NCBI GenBank assembly: GCA_032718475.1
Contig: JAUCBJ010008923.1
Coordinates: 1-48,519 of the forward strand
Direction of reading: 5' to 3'
DNA: 48,519 nt
Source of the DNA: Nemertoderma westbladi
Taxonomy: Eukaryota; Animalia; Xenacoelomorpha
A program made the position numbers and the translations under genes. Shown in pieces: positions 5,697-47,430 of this stretch (position 1 is the first letter of the stretch; each line of letters opens with the position of its first letter). Under the pieces are notes generated by a model. That model had not been told where the DNA came from and ran no database searches. It was given only the letters and a program-made list of their open reading frames with translations.

Positions 5697-5840
5697 TGAT
5701 GAATTATTTCACTATAAGATAGCATTTGTAGTTTAACTTTAACGTAAAAACTTTCGAAAATCCGACGCATTTTGATTAAGTTACAGTAATGTAATATTGC
5801 CTATTCATATTTGTACACATAAGGCCCCTAGTTACTCTCG

Positions 5841-5904
5841 TGGCGTAGTGGTCAGATGGTTAAGGCGTTGGTTACATTACAGATAGTTTACGTGTTCGAA
5901 TCCC
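5841..5904 (+). promoter_or_regulatory. tRNA-like Pol III internal promoter (A box + B box) in the LTR
   Basis: A box TGGCGTAGTGG (5841-5851) and B box GTTCGAATCC (5894-5903); both recognisable in all three LTRs. Confidence 0.6.
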
Positions 5905-5989
5905 GGTCGGGAAATTTGTATTTTGGGACCATTTATTTTCATTTGGTGCAAATTGGTGGACCAATGAGACGCGTACAACGTATCGAATT

Positions 5990-6250
5990 ATGAGCCAGGC
6001 CAATCATAGGGCATAGAATATCTTATTGCTCAAATGTGAGGCTATGGAAAATTCTGTTAGGATTCCGTGTCCCAGATTAGTGTAAGGGCCGGTTTGCATT
6101 GAACGATGAGCTGGGCCAATCATAGGGCATAGAGCATCTCATTGCTCAAATGTGAAGCTGTGGAAAATTCTGTTTGGTTTCCATGTACGATTTTAGTATA
6201 TAAGGATTGGTTTGCCTTCGGTTATCACCTTCACCTTCACCTTCACTTCT
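5990..6250 (+). promoter_or_regulatory. LTR U3 Pol II promoter: duplicated ~116-bp CCAAT-containing unit, TATA box, pyrimidine-rich initiator
   Basis: Two copies of ATGAGC.GGCCAATCATAGGGCATAG...GGAAAATTCTGTT (5990, 6106); TATATAAG at ~6197 followed ~30 nt later by TCACCTTCAC repeats. The TATA word is degenerate in copy 2. Confidence 0.6.
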
Positions 6251-6560
6251 ACTTGTTAACCTAGTACACCTTACTTATATTAGTTTATTTTGTTTCTTGT
6301 TGAAACTTTGGTAAATCTGCTTGATAATCTTTGCTCGAATCTAAACTGTAAATATACTGCAAACTCCTGAACATGTTTACTTTTGGTCCAACCTTGGGAC
6401 AGCCAAACATCGGGAAGATGGCAGCCTAGACAGTTAGGCCGTTAGCAACGCAGGAAAGGGATGTCCACAACACGCTAGCGCCCACATAAGTTTGACCGCA
6501 CACCCCCTTCGCCCTTCGAAATACTCCGACTTGCCATGCAGCGCCTGCTTTATGAGGAAG

Positions 6561-6740
6561 GTAAGACTTTGTTCGACGCCCTTGCCCGACGTAAGACCTA
6601 TAGATCAGGGTAAGCGTGATGCCGTCCTGGGACGCCGCAAAATTTAGGATCAAATAATTATATTCCAGGCAGAAACCCCCCCCCCCCCCCCCTTTTCTTG
6701 TCAGCCCTGCAAATCCCTGGGTTACCTGTGTACCTCACAG
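6561..6740 (+). other. Predicted small spliceosomal intron inside the LTR
   Basis: Donor AAG|GTAAGA at 6561 (alternatives at 6591 and 6610), poly-C/pyrimidine tract 6676-6700, acceptor TACCTCACAG|G at 6740; donor and acceptor conserved in all three LTRs. Confidence 0.5.
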
Positions 6741-8049
6741 GTGCGAGCAATTGCCGTTCGTCAGTATGCAAGTACATATTAGGTACGGACAGCATACGTT
6801 CCATAATTTAGTGATTTGTTAGTACTGACTGTTTGGTACCGGTTCGCTTTGTGAACATACATTAGTACCCCCCCCCCCCCCCCCCCCCTCCTACCTGGAG
6901 TTAGTTATTTGATCAGGCAAGGAGTATTTCTGCTACCGGCACACCGCTTGGCCTAGGGAGGTTTTATTAATATCCTACCGCGCCTTGCCACGTACTGATA
7001 GGTATTTGCTGCTAACTACCGCAGCAACAAAGTTCAAGAATCAAATTTGTATACCACATCAGCTAACGTACGGTAGCAATTAACCCCTATTTCTTATCTT
7101 ACAACCAGAATCTGGTATTTGTGCCGATCACGGGTGTAGTTACTAACGCCGTGGTTGCCCAGTTGAGTTGTGGATAGGAAGGAGAGAGCTTTGACGTCAT
7201 TTGTGAGTATAAAGTTCTACAAACGCGACGAGTTTATTTTAGTAGCTAGCGCACGGTATTATTTCAGTCACAGAAAATCACTAAAACCTAGTGAAATGAT
7301 ATACACCAAAATTGTTTTATTTGTAACACACCCACACACACGCGCCCTAAAACATATTTACCCTTAGAGAGAGTTCCTACTAGGTAGCGCACTTTAGATT
7401 TTAGGCAGAATTTATCTGTATTCGTAGAATTAGGATCTGATATTTAGTTACGGCAAGGGAGTATTTCATTATTTTGTTATTAAACTGTTGTTTTCAGCTC
7501 AGCAGTATTGTCACGTTAGGCACGACCCTTTTAGACTGATTTCGTACAGGGGGATCAGTTATTGTTACATTAGGCACGACCTTTTTTAGGCTGATTCAGA
7601 CAGGGAGATCAGTATTGTTACGCTAGGGCTGTAACCCACCTAGCTTGTATATAAACCATATAAATCACACCGCGGCAAGTTACGGTATTTTAGGGCTGTC
7701 AGCGATAGTTAGGATTCGCTGCGCGGGGATTGTTTTCCCGTGAGTTTGGTCTGTTACTGTAACTGTACATCTGCCATACCGGTTAGAGGACAGGTATCCT
7801 TTTGTCTAGTTTGTAGGCATTAGACCCGCTCACGTACATAGAATAGACACTATTGTATCTGTTTGTTTAGATATCCTGGACTGGGATTTGTTGTCAGATA
7901 CTGTACGAGCCCGTTTCATTACTAGAGTCTCATAGTAAGATACATCGTTACTAGGATCTGGTAAGCGGTATACTACTGGACATATTCTATAGCTTCTTAT
8001 TAGTAGATTTGTAGGCCGTAGGGTAGTCCCTACCGTAGGGGACACCACA

Positions 8050-8059
8050 GTGAGGTATA
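8050..8059 (+). promoter_or_regulatory. Non-tRNA primer-binding site candidate GTGAGGTATA
   Basis: Directly follows the LTR-terminal CA; lacks TGG; reverse complement of LTR-internal TATACCTCAC (24240-24249; 6729-6738 with one G.U pair). Confidence 0.6.
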
Positions 8060-8898
8060 TTTATTAAATATCTCGACCGGAAGTGCGTGCGCATTTTAAG
8101 GTATTAACTATTGTATTTAGCTATTGTAAGTAGGAGATATTTAAGATTTTAATAGTAGTAAAATTTGTAATTTGTAGAACGTCCCCTGCTTCAGTAGGCT
8201 TTTAGGGTAGCTAGTAGTTTCGTATTTAACATTTGACTAGCTAATAGTGAGTTTGTAGCAATTTGTTTTACACCGTGTGTGTGCGGTGTTACTTTTCGGT
8301 ACTTGAAAAGGTACATAGGGTTTAGAGACCAAATTGTATCGGTACCTAGGAAGAATTTTTGTAGAGTAGAAGTAAAACTCTCACCTTCGACTTTTCAGGA
8401 CTCAAGGACTCATTTCTGGACCGCTTTGAGGATTAGACCGCTTTTCGCAATGTTTGGGAGACACAAAATTCGTCCGCGCCGCCGAAAAACGGAATGACCC
8501 ACATCCGGTTTGTATTTGGGAATTTGTATGACTGGAAGATCAAAGGAGCGTAAGTTTTACGACTCGTGTCGTTTTAAACTTAGAAAGCACAGTAGTACTC
8601 AAAATTTGTGGGTTTCACTGTCTGATTAGTAGTGTTGTTGGTACATATTTTTCCCGTTAGACGTTGCTGTTTTGCCTATTATTTGTACTTGTTGATCTAC
8701 ATTTTGGTAACGTATACCGTTATCTCACTTATTCGTACAAATTTAGCCGGTAGGCTAGATTATTACTTATTTTATTATATATTTTGTTAGTTTATTTGTA
8801 CCGGTTAGGGTATATATATGATATATATATATCAAGGTAAGTTTGACATTTGGACATTTTGACATTTTATTACCCGTACTTGACGTATATAATAAGAC

Positions 8899-11800
8899 AT
8901 GAGTGACACACCACATTCGACGCGATACCCCCCTATCGACTATGACTCGTGCGACCCGGACAGATTGACAGTAGACGAACCGAGAAGGAGAACCCGAGAT
9001 TCCACCGATGTCACACCGTGTGCGTCGCCGGTACCCCGAACGGAAATACCGGAAGCCGCAGTGCGTGGCCACGGCAGAATCGAAGATTTCCTTACCGTCC
9101 CGCAGACTAGATCGTGGGAACCGGACATGGTAAGTTCGAATGGAAGCCAGGAGAACGTTATTAGAAGTATAGGAGGACACATGGCCCAGATTACTCAAAA
9201 CCTCGGAGAAGGTTTTTGCATTTTACGCGAGTTAACCACCGCGATGTTGAGATACGAGTTCTATACCTTACAGGTGAGGATAGAAAGTACGGTACATGCT
9301 TCCGTAGATGAACTTAAAGGTTTACACGAACTTGCAGAGTTGCGTGGCGACAACTTTACTCAGGTAAAGATAATAGATAAGTTAGTAAGTGCAAGAGAAA
9401 GTATTGTTCAGTTTAAGTCAGTAATAAGATTGGCTCAACAGGAGCAGTTTGACCAAATGCTAGGTGAGTCAGTTTCAGACGCGTTGTTACAACCCGAAGA
9501 GGAAGAAGAACTATACTGCCTGGACGGGAGGTTAGGGACGCTCACCAATTTTCTTCGTAGATGCGGCATACCGATCGAAGAACCGGAAGTCGAACCGCGA
9601 GGGACGACGGAAGTTCTCACTACGGAAGGCTTGCGAGCCTACCATATTCCACCCATGGATAGATCGTTCGTTAGCATGCGGAGTGACGCTGGCGACGTTA
9701 GTAGAACAGCATCTGTTATTACTCGACAACAACAGGAAGTTGCACGCCGACAACAAGTTGCCGAGGAAGAAGCGCAATGACAGATGGCACAGATCGCTAT
9801 CGAGGGAGAGAGACAACGTAGAGAAGACGAAGCAAGAATTGCGCAACTCAAAGCGCAAGCCGAATTTGAGGCTTCGGAGATGCGTAGATTGGAGGAAGAC
9901 TTAGCGCGAGAAGCAGCCGCGGCAGCAGCAACCGACGAGTTAGCACGACGGGTAGCAACTGACGAGTTAACACGAGTTGCAGCAGCTGACGAGTTAGCAC
10001 GGCAGAAGGCGGCCTCTGACGCACATGCTCAGTTGGAGGCACGGCAATTAAAATCATGTTTAGCCATACAGGAAGCAGAACTAGCGGCACAACAACAAGT
10101 AGCGGATCGACGCGAAAGGGAGATGCAGCTACAGTTCGAATTTAATTGTAGATCGCGTGAGGCAGCGAACGCGCAAGAGGACCTCAAACTCGACGCGAGA
10201 GATAGATCTATAAGATCCCGAGCCGGACATGACTTGTCTGCTCTGAATCGTTTCGAAGCTCGATATCGCGGAATTCAGAAGCGTATCGAGGAAGGAAGTG
10301 TGGGAGCGATAGATAGAGGAGAGGAGTTCGTCGAGGATTACTGTAAACGTTTTCCCCAAGTTATTCCTATGCTTAAACCCACGACTCCGATAAAACCGGT
10401 CTTTGTCACGAAACCTAAGGAAATAACGCCCGTGCGCTCGACGCAAGGTAACAGGTTTGTTGTGACAGAAATACCGCAACCTAGGGCAACTTCATCGCCA
10501 ATTTTAGCAGGTAACATAACTAGTCCACCTACAGTAAGTTGTAGTCTACTTGTAGGAAGGGAGGAACCTGCATTTATGTCAATTAAAAAGCAAAGTAAGC
10601 AGTTAAACCTGTGACGTGCTGTGCGAACCCAGTTATTTATAGACCGACTACGAAACCCGATTACTTTACTCAACCTTTGACACAATGTTAGACGCGACCT
10701 ACGACTTCGTGGAAGGCTTGCGAGCCTACCGAACAACGGAGGAGGACGGATGTGGGTAGTACCCACAGGATCGAACCATGTTTAACGAGACCTACGACTT
10801 TGTGGAAGGCTTGTGAGCCTACCGAACGACGGAGAACCGTAGATCCCAGAACGCAACGAATGCGACCAAGAATAATACACCGTACGCGAACCCGCCAACC
10901 ACCTTATCCGGACGACAGCGACTCATCTAGTGACTCGGAGTCGACAGAACGGGAAGTATTCCATACTGGAGCGGCAGCAGCGGCGACGGATTGCAAATGA
11001 GAGGAACGATCGACGAACCAATTCGTCAACAACCCACCACGAGAAACACCCATTCGGAAACCCACGTTGCGACCAGCGGAAACGATCCGCACCAAACAGT
11101 TCACCGAGATGACGGACCGACTAGCTCAACTCGAAGAACTACTTGAAGCGCAACCGTCGGACCGATCACGAACCAGCATGGAGTTGGAACAACCTAGACA
11201 ACATCAACCACCAAGGAGAGAACAGGAGACTAGACAGACTCCGACCCATCGAGAAGAAGATCCCGTTAATAATTCCTACCGACGAACAACGTGCGGAAGG
11301 GAACGACTAGACGACGCTACCGAACAGGGACGCGGACAGTTGGATTTGGTTAGCAAGATTGCGAAATTCGCGGCTAGACTCGGATTACCGGCACAGCAAC
11401 TGCCGAAGTTCTCTGGCAACGCGAAACACTGGCGTACACTGGTAGACTACATCGAGCCCCAGATCGCTAAGTGTGCTTTCACCTCGATGGAGAAGTTTAA
11501 TTACTTGCTCCAAGTCCTGTCTGGTGAGCCAAAACGATTAGCGGAAACCTTTATCGGTGTTCCAGATGCCTTTGAGTTGGCGTACGACCGTTTGTATTCG
11601 ATTTACGGCGGTGACGTGGCCATGGCTAAATCCATTATAGAAGACCTCTGCAGAGGAGGCAATATTTCGAAACCGATCGACCTTTTACGACTCGCGGACG
11701 AAATAAAGAACGCTATAGGGACTTTACGGTCCATAGGACAACTCGAATACGCTAACGCACCGACAGTTCTCATTAGGATAATCGGTCGACTTCACCATCG

Positions 11801-12341
11801 ACTCCGACGAGAATGGCGACGCATCGAGTACCGGCGTGAAGAAGCCGGCGGGCTTTTGAAACTCACCGACGTCTACCAACTGATTTCACGGGAGGCCGTG
11901 ATTGAGACTCGATCGAACTATACCGAACACCATATCGCGGCAGAAGGGATAGCTATTTCTGCACCGACTCGGACCAAACCATTTCTGACGAACGCAAAAG
12001 CCGTTACCTACGCCACCCCTACTGAGACTTCTAAAGTTCTGACGCCTATCGGCACCACACAGCCACAACAACAGTTGCCAGCGGACTTTGTGGGATGCTT
12101 GTACTGTAAGCAGAACGGCAGAAACTATAGCGGACATAAACTTTGTGGGTGTTGTGCTTTTAAGGAGTTAGGAATCGAAGAGCAGAGACTCCAGATTCGA
12201 TCGTTAGATTCCTGCTGGAGATGTATGAAGCCAGGACACGTCCGGAAGGATTGCCCGAGCGACGATACATGTCCTCAGTATGGACGTAACCACGACGCGT
12301 TACTCCACACAACGAGTCATACTCCGACCAAACGCTTTTGA
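8899..12341 (+). pseudogene. gag: BEL/Pao Gag region (coiled-coil N-terminus, DUF1759-like core, three Cys/His knuckles), disrupted
   Basis: LPKFSGNAKHW...EKFNYLLQVLSGEP...AYDRLYSIYG; CLYC..H..C, CWRCMKPGHVRKDC, CPQYGRNHDALLH; in-frame stops at 9778 and 10612 and a frameshift before 11067. Confidence 0.92.
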
Positions 12342-15300
12342 CGAGAGTATCCAGATAAAGCGGCTAGATGCGACGCGCTTTACAAGGAGCGTGCGCCGCG
12401 CGAGATTCATACTTTCTACGTGGATTGTATGGATCAATCGGGATCATCGGACGAGGACGAGGAGGAAGACGACACATTTTATGTGCATGCGGGTGAGGAA
12501 CAGCCATCGATAACGCTCCTCACACAGAACCAATTGAAAGGGTTTAGCGTGATTTCTATAAAGATTACCGGAACCCGAGGGAGCAAGCGTATATACGCTA
12601 TCTTAGACTCTGCGTCATCGCATAGTTATGTTGACGAACAAGTAGCCGACGTAGTTACGGACATGAGTCAAGGTAAGACTGCTCAGTATACTGTAAGCAG
12701 CATGCATGGTAAGAGAGTGATTCCTGTGACTAGAGTAAAACTAACCTTAGACACTCTTCTTTCCAAAGCGGAACACAGCAAGGACGAGCACTCATTACTT
12801 CCGGTAATAAATTTGACCTTTGCAGCTACGAAGGACTTTAGTAACTTGCTTGGCCCTGTGCCAGAGCAATCACCGGAAGATCGTAAGTATTTCCGACACC
12901 TTGGAATACCGGAATGTCCTGTCAATTATCGTTCAATTGCGATGTTAATTGGGACAGACCAGTTTAACTTACATCAGGTATGGGAGACACGCCCATCTGT
13001 TATTACAGCGGGCAACCCCTAAGCATGTAGAACTCCCATAGGTTGGTATACTAGAGCACCAATACGTTCACTAAAGGTAAGTGACCAGGAGGACGACGTT
13101 TTGAGTACGTGTAGTTTATTGACTAACACGATTGATAATTCTCCTTCACACTCCTGTGGTCCAATTGTACAGACGGCATTATGACAGACTTGCGTCGCTA
13201 ACGCAGACACCACCGATACTGACGTAACTGATCTGGACACGACCACACGGACCTCTATCTTACAACTACTTGCAGTAAACCAGGTTGTATTGACTACTGA
13301 AGACCAAAGGGTTGTTGCTGTGGATGACTCGATGCACGAGGGTTTTGGAAGGCTTGCGAGCCTACCGTAAAATCCGAAGGTCATTGACCCCACCCATCAG
13401 GCTTCGACACCGGTCGTTGATATTGGAAGGCTTGCGAGCCTACCGACAGATCAAGAGGTTGTCAAACCGCCGCACGACGATTCGACGCCGACTAGTGACA
13501 CTGGAAGGCTTGCGAGCCTACCAGACATATTGACACTAGCCACCGCAGTGGACGAAGACGTGGACGAGGACCATGGCGCAGTGCAAGCAGCGCTTGACTG
13601 ACTGCTGACTGAACGGACCATCAATGGTTGGACCGCTATGTCAGGACAGGAAAAACGGTCATTAAATATTATGAGAGATACCATTCACCAGACCGCGAAT
13701 GGCCACTACGAGGTTGGCATGTTGTGGCGCAATGGACAACCTAAGCTAGTTAACAATTACCCGCTTGCTTTGAGGCGACTCAAATCAATAAGGCAGCGAT
13801 TGTTGCGAGACGAGACGGCCCATATGCAATACAATGCACAACTTCAGACGTATCTCCAAAAGGGATACGCCATTAGGATGTTAAATCCCGAGGTAACCAC
13901 AGATTAGACATATTACCTGCCACATCATTTTGTTCGACACCCGGACAAACCTGGCAAGGTGCGTGTAGTCAACGACTGTGCCACGCTTTACCAAGGAATG
14001 TCTATGAACAGCGAACTGATGGACGGGCCGAATATTAATAACTACCTCATGGGAGTCCTAATGCGTTTTAGACAACGCAAAGTGGCTTTCACCTGTGACG
14101 TAGAGGCCATGTTTCACCAGGTTAAGGCTTTGGAGCGGGACAGGGACAGCTTGAGGTTTCTTTGGTATCTGGACGGAAATTTAGAACTTCCGCCAGAAAC
14201 TTACCAAATGCAGGTAAGAGTTTTCGGAGCCAGGGACAGCCCCAACTGCACCATGTACGCCTTAAAGCAGACCGCATTAGACAGACAAGACCAATTTGAC
14301 CCAGAAGTAGTTCGGACTGTGGAACGAGATTTCTACATGGATGATGGCCTCAAGAGTTGTGACGCCTTGGAGCGCGCTACAACTGTAGCCCACCAACTCC
14401 AGGATTGTCTCGCTGAGGGCGGATTTCACCTGACGAAGTTTGCTTCTAACGAACCCGAACTGGGGAACTCATTTGACCCGATGGATCGTAGTGGAGGTGA
14501 CCTAGACTTAGACCTAGAACCTCTACCGACGACCAAAGTATTAGGACTTAGTTGGGACCCTAACACCGACAATTTTAGGGTACGTGTAAGGTCCAACGAC
14601 CAGATTAGACATCTCACTAAGAGGACTTGCTTATCGACCATGAGTCGATTGTATGACCCATTGTGTTTCATTAGTCCAGTGATCCTACATGCTAGGATCA
14701 TACTCTGCAGCATTTGGCAAGCCGGTCTGGAATGGGACGATCCCATCCCAGAAAAGTTAGCTGAGCAATGGAAGGACTGAGAAGCCCAACTGACGTTCCT
14801 ACAAGACTATACCATACCAAGGGTATACTTTCCTTTGCAGACCACCTTTCCTGCCGATTTAGAGCTTCACAGCTTTAGTGACGCTAGCAAGGATGGATTG
14901 GGGGTTACATTATACCTTAGACGACAAGTGACATCGGACAGCTACGATGTATCTCTCGTTACTTCTAGGGCTAGAACAATGCCGTTGAAGTATATGACTG
15001 TACCTCGTGGAGAACTGCAAGCCGGGACGATATCCACCGATATTGTCAGTCTAGTTCAACGCGAGCTGTAGGCTAACTTGAAGGTCACATATTGGACGGA
15101 TGCGACGTTGGTACTTTGGTACATAAACAACGAAGCGTTTGAGTTCAAGACTTTCGTAGCCAACAGATGGGCTGAAATCTTGCTCAAACAAGATTGGCGT
15201 CACTGTCCAGGGAAGCTGAACCCAGCTGACATCGCGTCACGGGGAATACAACCGCTTGACTTTTGTAAACCGGACAATAAATCCTTTTGGTTTAGAGGAT

Positions 15301-17755
15301 CCGATTTCCTACAGCGACCATCAGACAAAGGCCACTGTTATTCGACGTGACAACCAATACCATACCAGAGGGTGCCGAGATAAAAATCGACAAGGTTGTC
15401 AAATCAAAAGCGAAAGCCAACGCCAAGGTCAAGAGGAAACAAGGACGGACGAAATCTGATGACCTGGACGCTAGACCTGACATTACGCCAGACGTCTCAC
15501 CAGAATCTCGACCAGACGCTTGTACGAATCTTTCACCGGATGTTCCGCGGGAGATTTCACCAGACGTTTCTCCTGATTGTTCACCAGATTACTCGCCAGA
15601 TTCACCAGAAGCGACACCAGATTGTTCTCCGGATTGTTTGCCAGATTGTTTTATGGAACTCTCGACAGATTGTCTACTGGACGTCTCACCAGACTTTCCA
15701 CCAGACATCTCGACAGACTGTCCACCAGATTTTAGACCAGACTTTAGACCAGACTTTCTGACAGAAATTACGCTAGACACCTTTTGGGACCGACGACAGG
15801 ACATTTCGCCGGATGTTCCGCGCTATGTCTCACTAGACGTCTCACCAGACTGTTCACCAGACGTTTCACCAGACTGTCTACTAGACACTCCATTAGAAGA
15901 CCCATTGGAGCGGACTTTTAGAAATTTACCAAATTTGACTTCTTTGGACGACAAAGGTGTGGCCACAGCGATCACACTTCGCTCAAAGAAAGTACTTGAC
16001 TTACCACATACAGGTAAATGTTTGACTAAGGTTAGGAAAATTACAGGCTCACAGGAACACACTAACACTGTAGAGTTGACACCGTTACTGCCAGTCGACT
16101 CACTAGGAGCAGACGGTAAAGGTAAGACCGTGGAGATTGACATACTTGGGGACTCAGACAACCCTACCGGAAGGCCCGTGGGCCTACCAAGTCCAGACAA
16201 GTATCCACACTACGACTATACCTTACCTGATGACGTCACTAACACTTACGTTGACCGGATAGTAAACCTAACTAGATCATGGACTGACGCGTGCCGCAAG
16301 TTAGCATGGCTCAAACGTTTGAGACAATATGCCAGAGGCAAACGCGACTTTCCTAGAAGACTTACCTTAGAGGAAGTTGACCATTGTGAAGTTGATATCA
16401 TTCTCCATTATCAATTGCGATATTTCGCACGAGAATTCACAGCGATCAAACAAGGTAAACAGATCAAGTCTTCACCGATTTTGAGTTGGAGTCCGATTAT
16501 TTATCGGGGCTTACTTTGTCACAAGTCCAGACTCCAGAACATCAACTTTGCACTTGACTTCAGGTATCCTATCATCATACCGCAACACCATGAGTTACAG
16601 CGCGCTATGATACTGGACGCACATGTACAACTCAAACACGTGGGTAGACATCACTGTTTGTCACATTTACGATCGAGGTTTGTACTGATTAGGCCTAGCA
16701 AGGCACTGAGTTTGGTAACACGGAACTGTATGATTTGTAAGAAGGTGCATGCGAGGATAGGACACCAAGAAATGAGTGAACTACCACTAGCAAGATTACA
16801 GGCATTTAGACCCCCTTTCACTGAGACAGGGATAGACTGTTTTGGACCTATAATCGCGAAACGCGGAAGGGTACAGGTAAAACGTTGGGGATTGATCTTC
16901 ACTTGCATGGCCTGCAGAGCTGTCCATATAGAGCGTGTGACAGATTTGACCACCAATGCCTTTATCCTAGCCTTACGGCAATTTATCGCTAGACGTGGAT
17001 TGGTCAAATCCATTTATTGCGACCAAGGGACAAACTTTGTGGGTGCACGGAACGAAATAACCAGAGCTTTAAAGAAATTGGACCAAAACCAGATTTCCGA
17101 GGAACTACGTCCTCACCGTATTGTTTGTAATTTTAATACTCCAGACAGTCCGTGGAGAGGCGGAGTTTGGGAAAGGCTGATTGGCTCAATCAAGACAGCC
17201 ATGGCAAAAGTAATCCCAACGCAACACATATTGACAGACGACCAACTGTCGACGTTACTAATAGAAATCGAAGCGACTTTGAACACTAGACCAATCGCTT
17301 TGAACCCAGACAATAACGACGTACAGTTTGCCTTGACACCAGCGCACCTGCTTATGCAGGCGCCAATGACATTGTTGCCCATTTCGGTACCCGTTAATAG
17401 CGACGGATACGGCAACAAGGCTTGGAAAATCACTCAACTATTAGCAAATAAATTCTGGGAAATATGGCAGAAATATTATTTGCCCTCTATTTCATCCAGA
17501 ACAAATTGGTATCATAATACCCGATGTTTGAGACGTGGTGACCACGTTTTATTGGCTGAAGACAATCTGAAAAGACGGTTTTGGCTGACCGGAGTCATTT
17601 TGACCACACACCCTACATCTGGTGTAATAAGGACAGTTACTGTACGGACTATCGACGGACGTACCGTAGATAGGCCTGTACAACGTCTCGTACTCCTAGA
17701 GGAGACTAGAAACGAGACAGGAGACTACAAATCTCCACCCAATATTAGTAAATAA
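12342..17755 (+). pseudogene. pol: BEL/Pao Pol region: aspartic protease, RT, RNase H, integrase, DUF5641-like C-terminus, disrupted
   Basis: AILDSAS protease; YLPHH, DVEAMFHQV, FYMDD (RT); FSDAS, PRGEL, WTDA, NPADIASRG (RNase H); HHCC, GIDCFGP, DQGT, GVWE (integrase); FWEIWQKYYL. Same frame as late Gag until a frameshift near 15340; several stops. Confidence 0.95.
15475..15885 (+). repeat. In-frame 12-bp minisatellite encoding (S/R)PD(C/V/F) repeats between RNase H and integrase
   Basis: Degenerate TCACCAGACTGT units; protein PDVSPDCSPDYSPD... Confidence 0.85.
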
Positions 17756-18477
17756 GATGTGGTACCCTTGATGGCCACCACATAGACTTACCATATTTTA
17801 GTCATTTTGTATTACTGTATGTGCATTTGTAATCCTCTTCACTGTAGATAGAGACAGCGGTGGAATTCCATGTCTTTATATGTGAACATGGAGGGTAGTA
17901 CCCTTATGTATCACATAGGAGCGGGATTGTGTGTGTACAGTAGGAATGGAATTCTACTTAGAACCCACAATTGAGACAATTTTTCAAAAATTATTAGACA
18001 AATCCATTCAGTTGGATTTAAATTTAAGAAAAATGATTCTCCAGTGAATACGAATTCTAGAATACAGCTAGATAAAAATTAAAATTGGGGAGGACAAGAG
18101 CGGATGGAAGGCTTGCAAGCCTACCGATAAATTTTTTTTGGAAAACAAAATCGGCCTTGTTCTACGTAGTCGTGTCTACTATTATTTAGACCAAATTAAT
18201 TCTCGACTGCATTATTTTCTTAGGAATGTAGTTTGGGAAATTAAAAGGTGAGTATTTTAGACTCGCGGCTAGTTTACCCGGAATTCGTTTTTTATCGGCA
18301 CAATTTTTTGGATTAGGAGCCAGTGCGAAATCACACAAACCCGAAGTCATTAGGCAAATGGGTTGGGGTTTTAGAGCAAAGTTGAGCCAAAAGCTGACAA
18401 ACTCTAAGTCACCTCACATCTAACCTCTATTTTGTGCTTCATCTAGTAGCAACGTAACGATATGTAACCATATATAT

Positions 18478-19167
18478 GTGTATACGATGGCGGAGAAGAT
18501 GAATAAGGAGTTACGTCAAGAGTTTACGCAGGAACAAGAGGCGCCATTCAATCGTTATGGAGCTAAAAACTTTAGTGTGTTTGGAGTGGAGAGTATGGCC
18601 AGAAGTACGGCCAAGCTCGCTAAATCCAAGGCGGACCCGAATGTTACGCGACAGCGGTTGGACGTGTATAACAAAAGAACGGAGGAGATACGCGCAGAGT
18701 TTAATGCGTTATATCCCTACGATGCATTATGCGATGCTAGTGACATTTGCGAGGATCCAGACACCGAGATGCGCCGATTGTATCATACGCTGCAATACTT
18801 GACGGTAGATGAACCCTTACCTGCAGCCAGGGATGAATTCGAAGGAATGTATCTTTATAGACACGCTCGTGGAGTGGATCCAGAGACAAAGGACGCGTTT
18901 TCCATATACATACTGTTTTACAAATGTGGAGCATGTATGCGTGAGCAAGATAACGCGATTCCTATGAGATTGAACTCGGAGAACCCCGAGCCAATATTAG
19001 CGCGATGCTCATACCACCAAAGTCTGCGTTACCAAGAAGGCGGATACCCTTTGACGAATCCGTACCATTTGTTTAAAATGAGTGGACCGAACGCGGGTGA
19101 GATCGTTATTAACGAACCCAGATTAGTCGAAACCAGACGTCTACAGCATGGTAGTGGACGAGTCTAA
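18478..19167 (+). CDS. BEL 3' accessory ORF A, unknown function (CxxC...CxxH possible Zn site)
   Basis: 229-aa open frame downstream of integrase; YKCGAC...RCSYH; overlaps the next ORF. Confidence 0.6.
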   Translation: MYTMAEKMNKELRQEFTQEQEAPFNRYGAKNFSVFGVESMARSTAKLAKSKADPNVTRQRLDVYNKRTEEIRAEFNALYPYDALCDASDICEDPDTEMRRLYHTLQYLTVDEPLPAARDEFEGMYLYRHARGVDPETKDAFSIYILFYKCGACMREQDNAIPMRLNSENPEPILARCSYHQSLRYQEGGYPLTNPYHLFKMSGPNAGEIVINEPRLVETRRLQHGSGRV

Positions 19168-20710
19168 TAAGTCGACACGAGAGAAACGGGAAGCTCTGAG
19201 CCTCTACAGGGCGTACAAGGCGTACGAGAAAGGCGAGATCGAGGAGTTTGGCGGAAGGCTCGCGAGCCTACCATTCTATTGGATATCCCACGATCAAACC
19301 AAACCTAAGGAGATGACACCCGAGCTCCTCGATAGTATCACCTTTGCTCAGCGTTTGTTGCAGAGACTACAGATACCTCATGTCGAGATGACGCGAGAAC
19401 CTCAGCCCCATTCTGCTGGAGCGATAGTACCGGTTGCGAGACCAACTAACTTTCCTATTAGTATACCGACCCGGAAGGAGACAACTTACGAGATTCCTAT
19501 AGTTGAACACCCGGAGATCATTTCGAACCTGGATTTCCTCCCATCGGTTACCTTCGGTGATGTGTTAGAGTCAGCCGAGTTACGTAAAACAATAGTTCAA
19601 AAAATCGTACGCAACGTGCCTCCACACATTACGGACTTTAAGGAAGTGGATCGAGTGGGGACGGATATCGCACCTTGCATCTTACGAGGATATCTGACTA
19701 GAACGATTCGATTATGGATCGGAGTTGGAACGTTTGAGACCGACACCAATATCGCGACCAATTGGACTGGTAAACCTATTAGTTTTGATGATGAAAAGTC
19801 AATTGGGAGAATTTGGAACCCTACCGACGATTTACTCGACGATTGGGATGTGACTAGCCGATCTCTAAAGGAGAATTGTTATATGTTTTACGACAATGAA
19901 GGAGGAAGCCATGAGCAAAGCCTCACTTCGAAAACTATACAGATTAGAGCACCAGACGGCGTGTTACATGTCTTCAGCCGACATAGGAGTGATAGAAAGA
20001 TGCCTATGCCGGAAGGAACGACGCAAAGACACGCGATGATAAAACGGATAGTTAAATCCATGGACCTGGCTTGTAGCATAGAAGCTAGGATGTTGCCAAA
20101 GGCCGTGCGAGACGTTGTGTTAGACAAGAGCATCGTCAAGATCGGATCCGGTGTACGGGATGACCTTATTAGCGATTTTGCGGGAATTGTCACGGAAGAG
20201 GATCAATTGCCTACGCCATACGTGGATACTAGACCATTGTTGCTTTGAGCTATTGAGCAAGGATATTTTAGGGAGTATAACACGCTAAAAACTGGGATGG
20301 GTTATATCTCATATCTAATGTTTAGTTGGGATTATAAGGAGAGTAAGAGGAGCAAGTACACGGACGTATACGGAGAGGGAGATACCCCCGGCGTAAACGA
20401 GTTCGAGTCACAGTTGAAGTGGCGAGGTTGCGTGTATTGGGCGATTAATTCACCTCCACGAATAATCTTGCAATACTATTTAGCGATAGAATCTTCGGTC
20501 AACGTTTGTTTCATCGCCGACGTAGTATCTAGAACCCTAAAGCGACATCCGTTATGTCTCGGTGAAGAACACACCTTTTACGATGGAGGAAGGACGCATA
20601 CTGATGTATTCCGACGATTTCTCCAACCCTTTTATAACACCGATGCGCACTGCAAAGTTTTCACGCGAGCGTTTTCAGGGACGTCTATCTCACTCACGCG
20701 GGAATCCTAG
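19148..20710 (+). pseudogene. BEL 3' accessory ORF B: WRN/EXD-like DEDDy 3'-5' exonuclease (one in-frame TGA at 20246)
   Basis: ExoI MFYDNEG...TIQI; ExoII LPKAVRDVVLDKSIVKIGSGVRDD; YVDTRPL...KTGMGYIS; ExoIII-like W...QYYLAIE. ORFs 19148 and 20297 are in the same frame. Confidence 0.75.
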
Positions 20711-20724
20711 TCGACAGACCATCG

Positions 20725-21441
20725 ATGTTAACGTTAGTACCGTATGACGGGGAACGCCACGCGGAATTCAAAGGCCCGGAAGGATCCTGGAAGGCTCGCG
20801 AGCCTACCGCCCATCACTACGATGTGGATCCGGCCGAGTTTGCGATGATAGACGAACCGTTGCAGCAACTCATAGAGATAGAGGAGAACCTTCCGAGGAA
20901 GACGCGAACTGAGATACGCGAGTTGGAGAAAAGCGATGCCATGGTTTGTGTACAACCTACGGAGACGAACATACCGACTGACCCGGATGATGAGAATTAT
21001 CACGTGGACGGTAGCGCTCGCCCCATCGGAGATCTCATCTATGAGCGAGTTTGGTACCCTGCCAACACTATTTGTGGCAGATGCGGGGCAACTGGCCACC
21101 ACGCAAAGAAATGCGGAGCGAAGCACATATCTCTACTGGACTTGGTATGTAACTGGTGCGGGGATCAACGTTCACACACTTTCTACACTTGCTGGCGTTT
21201 TGTGGCGCAGTGCACGTATTGTAATATTAAGGGCCATAGGGCATCCGAATGTCAACTTAAAGACGTCCTCTATGAGCACATGTCAGTTAAAATCGTTCGA
21301 CAGCTATTGGGAGGATCTAGCAGACGAGCATGTATCTACGCAGCGACGCCGTTTCCCTATGAGAGCACATTTGGGATTTTGGGCCGTAAACCCTCTCATA
21401 ATGTCGAAGGAAGGATACGTATCGGCTATGCCTCAGTATGA
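20725..21441 (+). CDS. BEL 3' accessory ORF C: triple CCHC zinc-knuckle protein
   Basis: CGRCGATGHHAKKC, CNWCGDQRSHTFYTC, CTYCNIKGHRASEC at 21073-21252. Confidence 0.8.
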   Translation: MLTLVPYDGERHAEFKGPEGSWKAREPTAHHYDVDPAEFAMIDEPLQQLIEIEENLPRKTRTEIRELEKSDAMVCVQPTETNIPTDPDDENYHVDGSARPIGDLIYERVWYPANTICGRCGATGHHAKKCGAKHISLLDLVCNWCGDQRSHTFYTCWRFVAQCTYCNIKGHRASECQLKDVLYEHMSVKIVRQLLGGSSRRACIYAATPFPYESTFGILGRKPSHNVEGRIRIGYASV

Positions 21442-22220
21442 TGAATTGTTGGAGGTGCTGGATATATTGCCTTTGGATAGCGGATTTATGGTTGTGCGGG
21501 ACTACTTTCTACAGGTACACCCCGACAACAAGAATACTTGGAACTTTCAAACTGTTGTGAACAAGATTACCGCCGGGGAATTCGACAAATTGCGAGTTGA
21601 ACAGCGCAATCGAGGAGCCTGGCATTCGATAGCTTGGGCATACCGGAGCGCATTTTATCACAAACGTGTAACCTCGTATATTCTAGACGAGACTGACGTT
21701 TTGTGTGAGACTGGCTTCAAGGCCACACCGTTAGCAGAAAGGACGCGTCACCCACAGGATGATTAGCAATTTCGTATACTCAAAGCCCAACAGGCCGGAC
21801 AAGAGATAAAGAAGGTAGTAAATGTTGCCGAGAGGATGACATCAAAGTCGCAAATCCGGATGACTCGGGGCACAGTTTCCCTTGCCAGAGAACCACGCGG
21901 AGGGACAGGATACGCTTTGCCGGAACCCTTTAGGATTCAAACAACGTCAGAGAGCGAGGTGTCAGCGGACGGAATAGTCCCACCATTTTGACTTCCTCCC
22001 AGCATTGTAGAGACTCGATCCGATGTTAAGTCGACGATTGGAATCGGACGAGGATTTAGAGGATTGAGCGCACGACGGATGTGCGAAACTCCCGTCGTCC
22101 CATTTCCTAGCGTTTTGGAACCACCGACAACTCGACGCCGAAGTCCAAGCCCAGTTCGACCTCGACCACCACCCAATCGCACTAGAGGATGTGGACGAGC
22201 CCGCTCATCGAAGGAATAGA
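21428..22220 (+). pseudogene. BEL 3' accessory ORF D (or frameshifted continuation of C), with Pro/Arg-rich tail
   Basis: MPQYDELLEVLD... frame reads on past stops at 21764 and ~21989 with coding-like composition. Confidence 0.4.
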
Positions 22221-22253
22221 AGCGAGAGGAAGGAAGGCTTGCGAGCCTACCGA

Positions 22254-22352
22254 TTTGGATATTTATATTCGGATATTTTATTTGGATATTATATTGGATA
22301 TTTATATTCGGATATTTTTATTTGGATATTATATTTGGATATTTATATTGGA
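22254..22352. repeat. TTGGATATTTATATT-type tandem repeat in the 3' UTR
   Basis: About seven GGATATT-cored units between two copies of the 20-nt hairpin motif. Confidence 0.8.
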
Positions 22353-22861
22353 CATTACGTTTGGACGTTGGGTTTGGAGGAGCGAGATAGAGAAGGAAGG
22401 CTTGCGAGCCTACCGTTAGCGATTAGTGCTCAGGAGAAGATATCCAGACCAGCAGGACGAACTTTTAAGATCGTCAGGAGGACACTTTAAGACTCATTTA
22501 AAGTTATTAGCGCCTTATGTTTATTTTATATTTGAACTGATTTAATTTGGTGGAAGTTTATTATGTATATTTACAATATAAAGATTTATTGCAAGAGATT
22601 GAAATTATTTGTTTGATTTGTTCTAATTTGTTTGATCTAATTTGTTTAATTTGCTTACCTTGATAACCGAAAGCCCATTTTGTATTTTATGCACTAAAGT
22701 TAATTAGTAAATTTGTATTTTGTATGTACGATGGATTGTATTTACGCCGTACCTGCGTACCTGCAATATTAAGTATGCAATAATTAGATAGTGATTATTT
22801 TATATTTTAGGCCCTACCAGTAGATTTAGAAATATTTGTAAATAGTTCGTATTTCGATTGG

Positions 22862-22896
22862 TGAAAACAGTCTTACTTACTGTTTTCATGGAGCGG
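22862..22896 (+). promoter_or_regulatory. Stem-loop plus short purine-rich PPT-like tract before the 3' LTR
   Basis: TGAAAACAGT-7nt-ACTGTTTTCA perfect 10-bp stem, then TGGAGCGG abutting TGAT. Confidence 0.55.
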
Positions 22897-23022
22897 TGAT
22901 GAATTATTTCACTATAAGATAGCATTTGTAGTGTAACTTTAATGTAAAAACTTTCGAAAATCCGACGCATTTTGATTAAGTTACAGTAATGTAATATTGC
23001 CTATTCATATTTGTACACATAA

Positions 23023-23329
23023 AGTAAAGTAAAGTAAAGTAAAGTAAAAGTAAATTTTCTTCGGCCGCTAGGCCAGGGATTATGCACAAAGTCTGACGAC
23101 TTATTTCCAGTGCGGTCCCCCCAGAACTTTACTCCCCAGAGGAAACTCCAGTACTCATTTAGCTACCACTTAAGGATGCAAGGCAGAGATGCGCCCTGGC
23201 TGGTCCCTTTAAAGCATTCGTGCCGAAACGAAAACTGCCCTGGCCCATGTGAGGATCGAACCCACGACCTATGGGAGATGTGAATTCAATGCGACCACTA
23301 CACCAAGGTGGAACCTTAGTTACGCTCCC
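23023..23329 (-). mobile_element. tRNA-derived SINE with (TTTAC)n tail
   Basis: Absent from the other two LTRs; minus strand has A box TGGTGTAGTGG and B box GGTTCGATCC; (AAAGT)n on plus strand at 23021-23054; TAA duplicated at the flanks. Confidence 0.85.
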
Positions 23330-25006
23330 TAAGGCCCCTAGTTATTCTCGTGGCAGAGTGGTCAGATGGTTAAGGCGTTGGTTACATTACAGATAGGTTA
23401 CGTGTTCGAATCCCGGTCGGGAAATTTGTATTTTGGGGCCATTTATTTTCATTTGGTGCAGATTGGTGGACCAATGAGACGCGTACAATGTATCGAACGA
23501 TGAGCCAGGCCAATCATAGGGCATAGAATATCTTATTGCTCAAATGTGAGGCTATGGAAAATTCTGTTAGGATTCCGTGTCCCAGATTAGTGTAAGGGCC
23601 GGTTTGCATTGAACGATGAGCTGGGCCAATCATAGGGCATAGAGCATCTCATTGCTCAAATGTGAAGCTGTGGAAAATTCTGTTTGGTTTCCATGTACGA
23701 TTTTAGTATATAAGGGCTGGTTTGCCTTCGGTTATCACCTTCAACTTCACCTTCACTTCTACTTGTTAACCTAGTACACCTTACTTATATTAGTTTATTT
23801 TGTTTCTTGTTGAAACTTTGGTAAATCTGCTTGATAATCTTTGCTCGAATCTAAACTGTAAATATACTGCAAACTCCTGAACATGTTTACTTTTGGTCCA
23901 ACCTTGGGACAGCCAAACATCGGGAAGATGGCAGCCTAGACAGTTAGGCCGTCAGCAACGCAGAGAAGGGATGTCCACAACATGCTAGCGCCCACATAAG
24001 TTTGACTGCACACCCCCTTCGCCCTTTGAAATACTCCAACTTGCCATGCAGCGCCCGCTTTATGAGGAAGGTAAGACTTTGTTCGACGCCCTTGCCCGAC
24101 GTAAGACCTATAGATCAGGGTAAGCGTGATGCCGTCCTGGGACGCCGCAAAATTTAGGATCAAATAATTATATTCCAGGCAGAAACCCCCCCCCCCCCCC
24201 CCCTTTTCTTGTCAGCCCTGCAAATCCCTGGGTTACCTGTATACCTCACAGGTGCGAGCTATTGCCGTTCGTCAGTACGCAAGTACATATTAGGTACGGA
24301 CAGCATACGTTCCATAATTTAGTGATTTGTTAGTACTGACTGTTTGGTACCGGTTCGCTTTGTGAACATACATTAGTACCCCCCCCCCCCCCCCCCCCCT
24401 CCTACCTGGAGTTAGTTATTTGATCAGGCAAGGAGTATTTCTGCTACCGGCACACCGCTTGGCCTAGGGAGGTTTTATTAATATCCTACCGCGCCTTGCC
24501 ATGTACTGATAGGTATTTGCTGCTAACTACCGCAGCAACAAAGTTCTAGAATCAAATTTGTATACCAGATCAGCTAACGTACGGTAGCAATTAACCCCTA
24601 TTTCTTATCTTACAACCAGAATCTGGTATTTGTGCCGATCACGGGTGTAGTTACTAACACTGTGGTTGCCCGGTTGAGTTGTGGATAGGAAGGAGAGAGC
24701 TTTGACGTCATTTGTAAGTATAAAGTTCTACAAACGCGACTAGTTTATTTTAGTAGCTAGCGCACGGTATTATTTCAGTCAGAAAATCACTAAAACCTAG
24801 TAAAATGATATACACCAAAATTGTTTTATTTGTAACACACCCACACACACACGCCCTAAAACATATTTACCCTTAGAGTTCCTACTAGATAGCGCACTTT
24901 AGATTTTAGGCAGAATTTATCTGTATTCGTAGAATTAGGATCTGATATTTAGTTACGGCAACGGCAAGGGAGTATTTCATTATTTTGTTATTAAACTGTT
25001 GTTTTC

Positions 25007-25879
25007 TACCGTGGCTCATTGCGGCCACATTTGAATTTTTCTTTTTTTTTTTAAAAAAAAAAGTACACCTAATTATTCAGACAAATATTTAGCTGTACTT
25101 TTTTTTTCTTCAAAAAAAAAAAAAATACACCTAATTATTCAGACAAATATTTAGCTGTACTTTTTTTTTCTTCAAAAAAAAAAAAATACACCTAATTATT
25201 CTGACAAATAATTTGGAGTATTTCTTTTTTTCTTTCTAAAAAAAAATACTCCTAATTAATTAATATATGTTATTGGAGGGAATTTTAAACAGGTACCTGT
25301 GGATAGCATGACCGGTACCCGGTACGAACGGTAGGGTACTCTGCTCTGCTGCTACTACTGTACTACTGCTACTACAGTACTACACTTCAGCACTTAGGCA
25401 GCTTAGCCTAAGCACGTCAGAACTGCGAAATGGCGTCAGATTCTGACGATTTTGATACTGTTGGACCTAATCCTAGTAGAAAGAGGAAACTACTCGCTGA
25501 TGTAAGACGTGATTGTTATCTTCAAATAAACAAGCTATATCAAATCTGAAATCTGCCAGGTTGAACAGCCTGATGATGATGCTGATATGCATACCGCTAC
25601 CGGTAGGCCTAACCTTATTGGCATTCCGACGCGACCGACTTCTGCCGGGAATCGATGCCGGGATACTCCAAATTATTTGTCAGAATAATTAGATGTATTT
25701 TTTTTTAGATAAAAAAAAAAGAAATATATACTCCAAATTATTTGTCAGAATAATTAGGTGTATTTTATTTTTTTTGAAGAAAAAAAAAGTACAGCTAAAT
25801 ATTTGTCTGAATAATTAGGTGTACTTTTTTTTTTAGAAAAAAAAGAAAAATTCAAATGTGGCCGCAATCAGCCACGGTA
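25007..25879. mobile_element. MITE / internally deleted DNA transposon with long structured TIRs
   Basis: TACCGTGGCT(C/G)ATTGCGGCCACATTTGAATTTTTC TIRs, mirrored ~59-bp subterminal repeats, duplication GTTTTC (25001-25006, 25880-25885); empty site in the 5' LTR near 7490. Confidence 0.92.
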
Positions 25880-26502
25880 GTTTTCTGCTCAGCAGTATTG
25901 TTGCGTTAGGCACGACCCTTTTAGACTGATTTCGTACAGGGGGATCAGTTATTGTTACATTAGGCACGACCTTTTTTAGGCTGATTCAGATAGGGAGATC
26001 AGTATTGTTACGCTAGGGCTGTAACCCACCTAGCTCGTATATAATATAAACCATATAAATCACACCGCGGCAAGTTACGGTATTTTAGGACTGTCAGCGA
26101 TAGTTAGGATTCGCTGCGCGGGGATTGTTTTCCCGTGAGTTTGGTCTGTTACTGTAAATACTGTTACTGTTACTGCCATACCGGTTAGAGGACAGGTATC
26201 CTTTTGTCTAGTTCGTAGGCATTAGACCCGCTCACGTTCATAGAATAGACACCAGGCTCTGCTCCTCGCCAGTAGTAGTTTTGTGTATTGTATCTGTTTG
26301 TTTAGATATCCTGGACTGGGATTTGTTGTCAGATACTGTACGAGCCCGTTTCATTACTAGAGTCTCATAGTAAGATACATCGTTACTAGGATCTGGTAAG
26401 CGGTATACTACTGGACCCTACGGTTAGAGATATTCTATTGCTTCTTATTAGTAGATTTGTAGGCCGTAGGGTAGTCCCTACCGTAGGGGACACCACAACA
26501 TT

Positions 26503-46532: not shown

Positions 46533-47430
46533 GTAGGAAGTATTATTTCCTTTAGTTTAGAATTGTTAGCTATTGAAAGTAGGAGATATTTAAAAACTAA
46601 GGTTAGTAAATTTAGTAATTTAGAACGTCCCCTGCTTCAGTAGGCTTTTAGGGTAGCTAGTACTTTCGTATTTAATCTTTGACTAGCTAACAGTTAGTTT
46701 GTAGCACTTTGTTTTACGCCGTGTGTGTGCGATGTTACTTTTCGGTACTTGAAAAGGTACATAGGGTTTAAAGACCAATTTGTATCGGTACCTAGGAAGA
46801 TTTTTCGTAAGCGTAGAAGTAAAACTCTCACCTTTGACCTTTTCAGGACTCAAGGACTCATTTCTGGACCGCTTCGAGGATTAGACCGCTTTTCGCAAAG
46901 TTTGGGAGACAATAAATTCGTCCGCGCCGCCGAAAAACGGAAAGACCCACGTCCGGTTTGTATTTGGGAATTTGTACGACTGGAAGATCAAAGGAACGTA
47001 AGTTTTACGACTCGCGTCGTTCAAACTTAAGAAAGCACAGTAGTACTCAAAATTTGTGGGTTTCACTGTCTATTAGTAGTGTTGTTGGTACATATTTTCC
47101 CTTTAGACGTTGCTGTTTGGCCTATTGTTTATACTTGTTGATCTACATTTTGTTAACGTATACCGTTATCTCACTTATTCGTACAAATTTAGCCGGTAGG
47201 CTAGATTACTACTTATTTTATTATATACCTTGTTAGTTTATTTGTACCGGTTAGGGTATATATATGATATATATATATATCAAGGTAAGTTTGACATTTG
47301 TACATTTCGACATTTTGACATTTCGACATTCTGACTTGTTGATTTATTTGTACCGGTTAGGTAAGTTTGACACTTCAACATTCAGACACTTTGACATTTT
47401 ATTACCCGTACTTGACGTATATAATAAGAC

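Follow-up and report, generated by a model that had tools for sequence, protein, structure and literature searches.

A giant BEL/Pao-lineage retrotransposon from Nemertoderma westbladi that probably primes reverse transcription with its own RNA

In the profile of BEL/Pao elements (Belpaoviridae) issued by the International Committee on Taxonomy of Viruses (ICTV), replication is described as host-tRNA-primed and poorly understood, with an 18-nt primer-binding site (PBS) for host tRNA-Arg or tRNA-Gly (PMC8742986). Another solution is described for Tf1, Tf2 and Tj1, whose primer is a 5' piece of the element RNA freed by a cut of the reverse transcriptase, or RT (PMC4600332, PMC5341516); it is the Tf2 RT itself that cuts this self-primer from the RNA (PMC5341516). 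A working criterion for self-primers is a complement of at least 10 bp, 0-5 bp after the long terminal repeat, or LTR (PMC6317226). Our subject is an LTR retrotransposon at positions 5697-26497 (+ strand) of a 48,519-nt stretch of Nemertoderma westbladi DNA (GenBank assembly GCA_032718475.1, contig JAUCBJ010008923.1, positions 1 to 48,519), called the window below. This element (copy 1) is accompanied by a relative that enters the window near its right end (copy 2).

Copy 1 is a BEL/Pao-lineage retrotransposon, which we file as a departing variant rather than a typical member because the tRNA-type PBS of the ICTV profile is missing from it. With Tf1/Tf2, Tj1, Tf1/sushi, Tcn1 and plant TAR Copia elements it shares a tRNA-free PBS after the LTR and a pairing of 10-11 nt with its own LTR (PMC4600332, PMC5341516, PMC6317226). 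In contrast to the Tf1-type systems, its pol is of the BEL/Pao type rather than Ty3/gypsy or Copia, with no chromodomain listed; the hairpin that holds its site is placed about 1 kb into the 2.3-kb LTR, within an intron of the RNA that starts upstream rather than at the 5' end of that RNA; and its LTR end has moved between subfamilies. We therefore regard it as an element that works like Tf1, not as a member of the Tf1/sushi group. Summed over three models of how the primer is made, we put the probability that the element primes with self-made RNA at about 0.85. No report of a self-primed or intron-primed BEL/Pao element was found in the literature searched (subscription journals and Repbase notes lay outside its scope), and the passages concerned in PMC6934838, PMC3286476, PMC554778 and PMC6431247 added nothing on BEL priming.

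The primer-binding site and its complement in the LTR

The features on which the argument depends are as follows.

5697..8049, + strand: 5' LTR of copy 1, 2,353 nt, TG...CA
22897..26497, + strand: 3' LTR of copy 1, carrying two later insertions
5692..5696 (left) and 26498..26502 (right), no strand: target-site duplication ACATT, 5 nt
8050..8059, + strand: PBS of copy 1, non-tRNA, directly after the CA of the LTR
6729..6738, + strand: primer-like site of the 5' LTR, 9/10 complementary to the PBS plus one G-U pair
24240..24249, + strand: primer-like site of the 3' LTR, exact complement of the PBS
6723..6742, + strand: conserved hairpin holding the primer-like site, with a 7-8 bp stem, a 5-7 nt loop and CAG/GT in its 3' arm
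44252..46532, + strand: 5' LTR of copy 2, right end inferred; its 3' LTR lies beyond the window
45262..45271, + strand: primer-like site of copy 2, in the same hairpin (45256-45275)
46533..46542, + strand: PBS of copy 2, exact complement of 45262-45271
7965..8049, + strand: LTR tail of about 85 nt, absent as LTR sequence from copy 2
26423..26432, + strand: PBS-like relic inside U5, where copy 2 has its PBS

Neither copy has a TGG within the 11 bases that follow its LTR, and neither carries the tRNA-Arg or tRNA-Gly PBS of the ICTV profile. Instead, the element has a complement of at least 10 bp to its PBS in its own LTR, as the self-primer criterion describes (PMC6317226). Between the copies, five of the ten PBS letters differ and so do five of the ten letters of the LTR site, while an eleventh pair, G-U, extends the duplex in both. 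Each copy pairs best with itself: the own pairings come to -21.7 and -17.4 kcal/mol, and the cross pairings between copies are weaker (-5.3 and -14.2 kcal/mol). When control 10-mers from the same leaders were matched anywhere in the LTR, exact complements appeared for 2 of 810 and 1 of 840. The proposal of the first-pass annotation that a non-tRNA PBS covaries with a site in the LTR is thus borne out by exact complements in two copies with half of the letters changed on both sides. Its description of the pair as rapidly varying stands insofar as the two words differ at 5 of 10 letters, but that description rests on two copies and one relic.

The second line of evidence concerns the end of the LTR. 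That of copy 1 is anchored by its 3' LTR and by the target duplication. For copy 2, whose LTR differs from that of copy 1 at 8.3% of aligned bases, contigs assembled from public sequencing runs (designated X1 to X6 where they must be told apart) mark the end: contigs of X2, X4 and X6 stop at 46520-46525, and depth drops past 46557. At the homologous place in copy 1 lies a relic word with the same GT-N6-TA frame as both PBS words, from which it differs at 3 and 4 positions. Across the three words the fixed letters are those tied to the hairpin stem, and the loop letters are variable. We infer from these sequences that the relic at 26423-26432 is an abandoned PBS, the LTR end having moved by about 85 nt and a new, site-matched PBS having taken over.

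Against copy 1, several contigs end at 7981-7985, and therefore much of the family seems to have the short LTR end. Contigs of two DNA runs skip 7986-8128; copies without the LTR tail and PBS thus exist. Depth dips at the bins of the site and the PBS when the runs are compared with copy 1, with no dip at the site in the comparison with copy 2; the dips mark copy 1 as the minority type there and are not a sign of hypervariability in the family. The host seems to contain many members of this family; run depth is not a copy number. The gag of copy 2 (47431-48519) is free of stops over the 363 codons in the window and is 84% identical to that of copy 1; a duplicated donor word lies upstream of it.

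A conserved hairpin masks the site. It is present in all three LTRs with a stem built from the conserved flanks, and one stem pair is compensated between the 5' LTR of copy 1 and copy 2. The PBS for its part folds with a downstream anti-PBS (to 8074), a neighbour that covaries with it. Beyond the AG that follows the site, further bases can pair with the U5 end after a bulge (4 and 3 bp in the two copies), and such pairing needs an RNA that is continuous through the AG. By eye, the anti-PBS has an alternative downstream partner that is kept in both copies (8066-8074 with 8136-8144; 46545-46551 with about 46581-46587), and in the modelled folds pairing with this word would free the PBS. In folds also judged by eye, a conserved U5 word at 7967-7978 is able to pair with the PBS as well.

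Two other sources for the primer were tried and rejected. No GT/AG joint in any of the three LTRs yields a splice-junction primer with at least 10 nt of complement, and the DNA match is contiguous. The U3 of all three LTRs (5836-5915, about 23346-23425 and 44390-44470) keeps a tRNA-like stretch, in which a T run comes after box A and box B words, and the longest complements of this stretch to the PBS are 4 and 6 nt. This stretch gave no tRNA call and no relevant Rfam match, and it folds no better than shuffled sequences.

How the primer might be made

The signals for transcription and splicing are given here.

6197..6203, + strand: TATA-like word, altered in copy 2
6561..6615, + strand: three donor words GTAAG at 6561, 6591 and 6610, conserved between the copies, the first of them seen used
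7080..7108, + strand: acceptor with branch-like word, pyrimidine tract and CAG
7203..7208, + strand: donor GTGAGT; a skip in X4 starts here and lands 7 nt upstream of the AG at 8398
7479..7484, + strand: ATTAAA, predicted poly(A) signal
8375..8398, + strand: acceptor joined to donor 6561 (GT..AG, 1,838 nt), which excises both site and PBS
8837..8842, + strand: predicted donor GTAAGT upstream of the gag ATG, not seen used
18420..18446, + strand: predicted acceptor ahead of the accessory open reading frames (ORFs), not seen used

From the sequence, transcription is predicted to start upstream of these donors at about 6228, and the R region to span about 6228-7500 (about 1.3 kb). Depth in X6 peaks over 45486-45954, just upstream of the ATTAAA at 45993, which fits the poly(A) prediction; one X6 contig stops at the homologous donor and then runs on unlike the element. 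The joint from 6560 to 8399 is carried by one X4 contig, with 25 nt on its shorter side; it is absent from X1, X3 and X5 and is not among the joints listed (15 of 16) against copy 2. X4 depth is 6-17 over 8104-8387 and 327 from 8388 onwards. In two X4 contigs the loose letters before 7107 and 45629 resemble, by eye, the end of exon 1, which suggests that an intron 6561-7108 is used. RNA thus starts upstream of 6560, and the spliced forms seen remove the primer site.

The account that we favour, to which we would give about even odds, is that an RNase H-type cut at the edge of the duplex frees the primer by analogy with Tf1, the primer being either internal to the RNA or begun by a second start at the hairpin. 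In the unspliced RNA, the hairpin would be opened, likely by zinc-knuckle chaperones, and the exposed LTR site would anneal to the PBS. The RNase H of the element would then cut after the last paired C and leave a 3'-OH, such that minus-strand DNA would start flush with the CA of the LTR without any trimming. The 5' piece sacrificed in this way could be recovered from the 3' LTR, because the predicted R is long and contains the site. The primer would lie about 500 nt inside the upstream-started RNA or form the 5' end of a second, shorter transcript, two versions between which the data do not decide. During plus-strand synthesis the next PBS would be copied from the primer, which would explain both the covariation and the movement of the LTR end. 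For retroviruses it is established that each cycle renews the PBS as a copy of the primer. The spliced RNAs that begin upstream, which lack both site and PBS, would serve as mRNA only, and the exonuclease-like product of accessory ORF B (see below) would not be needed for making the primer.

Several points weigh against this reading. The evidence consists of sequence and contigs, with no RNA end, cut or cDNA among the observations; X4 and X6 are read as RNA from their depth and joints, yet both are filed as 'DNA?', and no RNA run is on record among the 7 runs. The sample is two copies and one relic, and the LTR end of copy 2 was itself deduced. Taken alone, the hairpins of site and PBS are no more stable than shuffled sequences (z of -1.1 to -1.7), and with the site hairpin intact the 11-bp duplex nets only +1.4 to -2.3 kcal/mol after both hairpins have been opened, whereas an RNA that ends at the AG nets -4.5 to -8.2 kcal/mol. 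The variable core of the site is pyrimidine on the primer side at 16 of 18 letters (P 7e-4, with one of the words inferred from the relic). In Tf1 and Tj1 the primer lies at the 5' end of the transcript (PMC4600332, in the passages concerned), but in the upstream-started RNA here the site lies further inside: the spliced contig puts the RNA start upstream of 6560, and a second start at the site would be invisible to contigs. Finally, an internal primer leaves the 10-nt limit of the match unexplained; a second start at the hairpin, for which we have no direct support, would explain this limit in our model.

The strongest rival was the main proposal of the first-pass annotation. It holds that a short intron (donor 6561, 6591 or 6610 to the AG at 6740) is excised, that the 3' tail of the intron pairs with the PBS on an unspliced genome, and that ORF B trims two unpaired bases. 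An AG stands directly after the match in all three LTRs, three conserved donors lie upstream, and a branch-like word, clear in copy 2, occurs about 17 nt upstream. An acceptor would call for just such a pyrimidine-rich variable core, and 10 of the 15 letters before the AG are pyrimidines, as compared with 11-12 of 15 at the other acceptors. In an RNA that stops at this AG, the masking hairpin is also weaker by about 6 kcal/mol (from -10.6, -6.9 and -8.3 to -4.7, -1.0 and -2.5), and a DEDDy-like ORF is at hand for the trimming. The direct AG, the 16/18 pyrimidine core and the weakened hairpin keep this model alive.

However, a joint into 6741 or 45274, as this acceptor requires, is absent from the joints listed (15 of 16) against copy 1 and against copy 2, although contigs show presence rather than absence, rare forms get dropped from them, and loose contig ends beyond the listed joints number 438 against copy 1 and 179 against copy 2. 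Donor 6561 is seen joined to 8398 instead, and probably to 7108. The conserved CAG/GT, earlier taken for an acceptor, belongs to the 3' arm of a conserved stem, which gives it an alternative explanation. Furthermore, the model needs an additional trimming step for which the exonuclease support is weak, whereas a cut of the Tf1 type would do without trimming and without an intron end. It would also require the primer to come from another RNA, as otherwise the intron would be lost from the progeny. Overall, we consider the short intron unlikely. The same doubtful standing applies to its extended form, in which splicing at the AG unmasks the 10-nt tail, the element exonuclease trims it flush, an extra knuckle protein attached to the repeated 20-nt hairpins assembles the parts, and the primer loop drifts freely and may even reset the LTR end. 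From the earlier interpretation, the element-made primer is thus well supported by the covariation of two copies, but the route through a short intron and trimming is only possible. The analysis brought to light no connection that would join PBS, intron, accessory proteins and repeated hairpins into one machine.

It is improbable, in our view, that the pairing is a regulatory long-range RNA structure and that something else, such as an internal tRNA fragment, does the priming. Several alternative pairings do surround the PBS, and half-tRNA primers are known in plant Copia lineages (PMC6317226, in the passages concerned). Against this, in both copies the first base past the LTR is also the first base of the match, which follows the LTR end where that has moved, and two different PBS words would demand two host RNAs in addition to the match with the own LTR.

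Also quite improbable is that a larger LTR intron (6561-7108), with the site inside it, is released, pairs with the PBS and loses about 370 nt to a 3'-5' exonuclease, down to the part that the duplex protects. The loose X4 contig ends would fit such an intron, which would also give ORF B a job. However, the trimming would have to proceed through the branch point and through the hairpin while it is intact, an intermediate has not been seen, and no precedent was found in the literature searched. Chance or an assembly artefact is very improbable. In its favour, there are only two copies, and local divergence between them is not rare, since 146 of 2,279 ten-base LTR windows differ at 4 places or more. 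Against it, the odds of an exact 10-mer match between two fixed places are about 1e-6 per copy by simple arithmetic, and the public runs cover both LTR types. A primer that the element cuts from its own RNA is our best account of these observations.

Anatomy, accessory genes and the repeated hairpin

The remaining features of copy 1, together with one of copy 2, are listed here.

8899..12341, + strand: gag region (DUF1759, CCHC), interrupted by stops and a frame change
12342..17755, + strand: pol, with protease word at 12603, RT YMDD at 14334, RNase H/Peptidase_A17, integrase H2C2 and DUF5641
18487..19167, + strand: ORF A, 226 aa, open, no family
19148..20710, + strand: ORF B, DEDDy-like exonuclease by a weak profile match, in-frame stop at 20246
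20638..21441, + strand: ORF C, open, three zinc knuckles at 21073-21252
21428..21991, + strand: ORF D, no family, stop at 21764
22888..22896, + strand: short purine-rich word ahead of the 3' LTR, a weak candidate for the polypurine tract
23023..23329, - strand: secondary insertion resembling a short interspersed element (SINE), recognized by eye from box A and box B words and a tail of short repeats
25006..25880, no strand: secondary insertion, an element with long terminal inverted repeats
within 9624..22414, + strand: 12 copies of a 20-nt hairpin, starting at 9624, 10711, 10804, 13347, 13425 and 13503
within 9624..22414, + strand: the same 12 copies continued, starting at 16169, 18106, 19253, 20789, 22232 and 22395
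48156..48175, + strand: one copy of this hairpin in the gag of copy 2

The element spans 20,801 nt, or about 19,619 nt once the two insertions are subtracted. Its 5' and 3' LTRs differ at 50 of 2,359 aligned positions (2.1%), and ten stops and two frame changes interrupt gag and pol, which indicates that copy 1 is dead. The ICTV profile gives BEL/Pao genomes of 4.2-10 kb and LTRs of 0.2-1.2 kb (PMC8742986), a range that both the 19.6-kb element, twice the upper genome size, and its 2.35-kb LTRs exceed. A survey of 7,861 elements has maxima of 22,762 nt for the element and 2,427 nt for the LTR (medians 7,382 and 383), although these maxima may include nested insertions (PMC3118150, in the passages concerned). 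The earlier claim of a giant element of about 19.6 kb with 2.35-kb LTRs is upheld by the TG...CA ends and by ACATT on both sides. To call it very large for BEL/Pao is correct with respect to the ICTV range, but the element falls within the maxima of the survey.

Assignment to the lineage follows from the BEL-type order of protease, RT, RNase H and integrase (PR-RT-RH-IN), together with a DUF1759 gag, Peptidase_A17 and DUF5641. Pfam matches are PF03564 (E 2.7e-9), PF05380 (E 2.8e-14) and PF18701 (E 3e-19), and the RT match is weak. The integrase part of pol is open from 15296, the stops and a frame change lying upstream of it. It has 851 BEL-type integrase relatives, of which the best 120 are only 33-42% identical (proteins of 896-2,555 residues); the named BEL/Pao proteins among these 120 come mostly from fish and marine invertebrates. 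Searches for relatives at other levels yielded little: the viral-contig search for relatives with DNA context gave 9 pattern matches and 0 confirmed, the metagenome search with an LTR word gave no relatives, and the RT search gave just two matches of 16-17 residues, which were not used. The gag, pol order, Peptidase_A17, DUF5641 and TG...CA LTRs are thus shared with BEL/Pao elements (PMC8742986; PMC3118150 in the passages concerned), whereas the 18-nt tRNA-Arg/Gly PBS is lacking, four accessory ORFs replace env, and a hairpin is repeated. As for the polypurine tract of about 10 nt that is a BEL/Pao feature, only the short purine-rich word precedes the 3' LTR.

Some smaller features of the element deserve mention. 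A 12-nt tandem repeat (15463-15909) encodes a long Ser/Pro/Asp-rich linker between RNase H and integrase. Just past pol, at 17918-17932, a purine-rich word followed by TGTG resembles by eye the word before the 3' LTR and is possibly an internal or older polypurine tract. A U3 repeat of 106-116 nt is present in two copies with CCAAT words (5979-6200) and recurs in all three LTRs.

Four overlapping ORFs follow pol behind the predicted acceptor at 18446. ORF A has no match in Pfam, NCBIfam, Atlas (best score 0.76) or a homologue search. The triple zinc knuckle that had been reported is confirmed at 21073-21252 in ORF C, where the Pfam zf-CCHC match has an E value of 1.6e-4, below the curated cut-off for the stop-to-stop ORF and above it for a shorter piece. 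The accessory exonuclease, the second protein claimed at the outset, is only weakly confirmed: ORF B is the best of 486 window pieces and scores above all of its shuffles, but it has no database match.

The profile that singles out ORF B was home-made from bacterial stand-alone PF01612 exonucleases. With 13 seeds the hmmsearch E value is 0.057, and with all 19 it is 0.65. An 11-seed version left out two of these 13, as they looked like another exonuclease type; at three hand-chosen gap settings it placed ORF B above 300 of 300 shuffles. With the same 11 seeds, a pairwise hhalign comparison gave E 1.7e-4 at a probability of 50% and exceeded 100 of 100 shuffles. It is the Exo II block that carries this signal; Exo I appears only in a second alignment (E 0.95), and Exo III, like Exo I, was placed by eye. 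ORF B had 0 matches in solved structures, among 1.84 billion representatives and in Pfam to E 10, its N-terminal part had 0 among longer proteins, and NCBIfam gave one unrelated weak match only. A single-sequence fold model reached a pLDDT (predicted local distance difference test) of 31, too low for use. From its sequence, ORF B likely is or was a 3'-5' exonuclease, and trimming DNA overhangs or interfering with small-RNA silencing are roles as open to it as priming. A DEDDy ORF3 downstream of pol has been described in the LTR elements Juno and Vesta of bdelloid rotifers and in Terminons (PMC5408684, in the passages concerned). The position of a 3'-5' exonuclease-like gene is therefore shared with these elements, but they are not BEL/Pao, whereas here the gene is one of four overlapping ORFs, has long insertions and has no sequence relative that we found.

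The 12 sense-strand hairpins reported earlier are all accounted for: between the LTRs there are 12 on the + strand and 0 on the - strand, and the window has 0 outside the two elements. In 13 of 13 hairpins, that of copy 2 included, all 7 pairs and the opposed A bases are kept, and one shows a two-sided change. A peptide repeat was rejected as the explanation, because the copies fall in three reading frames of the coding regions; the target of selection is therefore the nucleic acid. Local duplication gave rise to some of the copies (spacings 93 and 78), so that the shared orientation is in part inherited. The likely role of the 12 hairpins is to bind, as RNA, a protein of the element that acts in export or packaging. 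The accessory protein CERV of Cer1, made from spliced RNA, exports the unspliced genomic RNA (PMC10309623, in the passages concerned). ORF A, C or D might have such a role with the hairpins, although the likeness to CERV is a functional analogy only.

Neighbouring elements and what self-priming would mean

Other repeated and mobile sequences share the window. A 41-nt tandem array (1-419) opens it. A remnant of a piggyBac-type transposase (DDE_Tnp_1_7) lies at 27211-28443, and an ORF with the endonuclease and RT of a non-LTR element follows at 28478-31369. Three long AT-rich ORFs occupy 36155-41806, and the one of 838 aa resembles clusters of protein-primed DNA polymerase B/endonuclease VII (Atlas score 0.97; PF03175 on 36% of cluster members). 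By sequence, this region is likely a Polinton/adintovirus-like element.

Given the covariation between the PBS and the LTR site, it seems appropriate to ask what a self-made primer would mean for the BEL/Pao lineage. If the intron model were true, the element would exhibit a kind of priming that is without a report in the literature searched. The 12-fold hairpin is a clean candidate for the RNA element on which a BEL/Pao accessory protein acts. The moved LTR end and its relic PBS may constitute a natural record of primer switching. If true, the self-made primer would extend self-priming to animal BEL/Pao elements and would indicate that such a primer need not be the first bases of the transcript.

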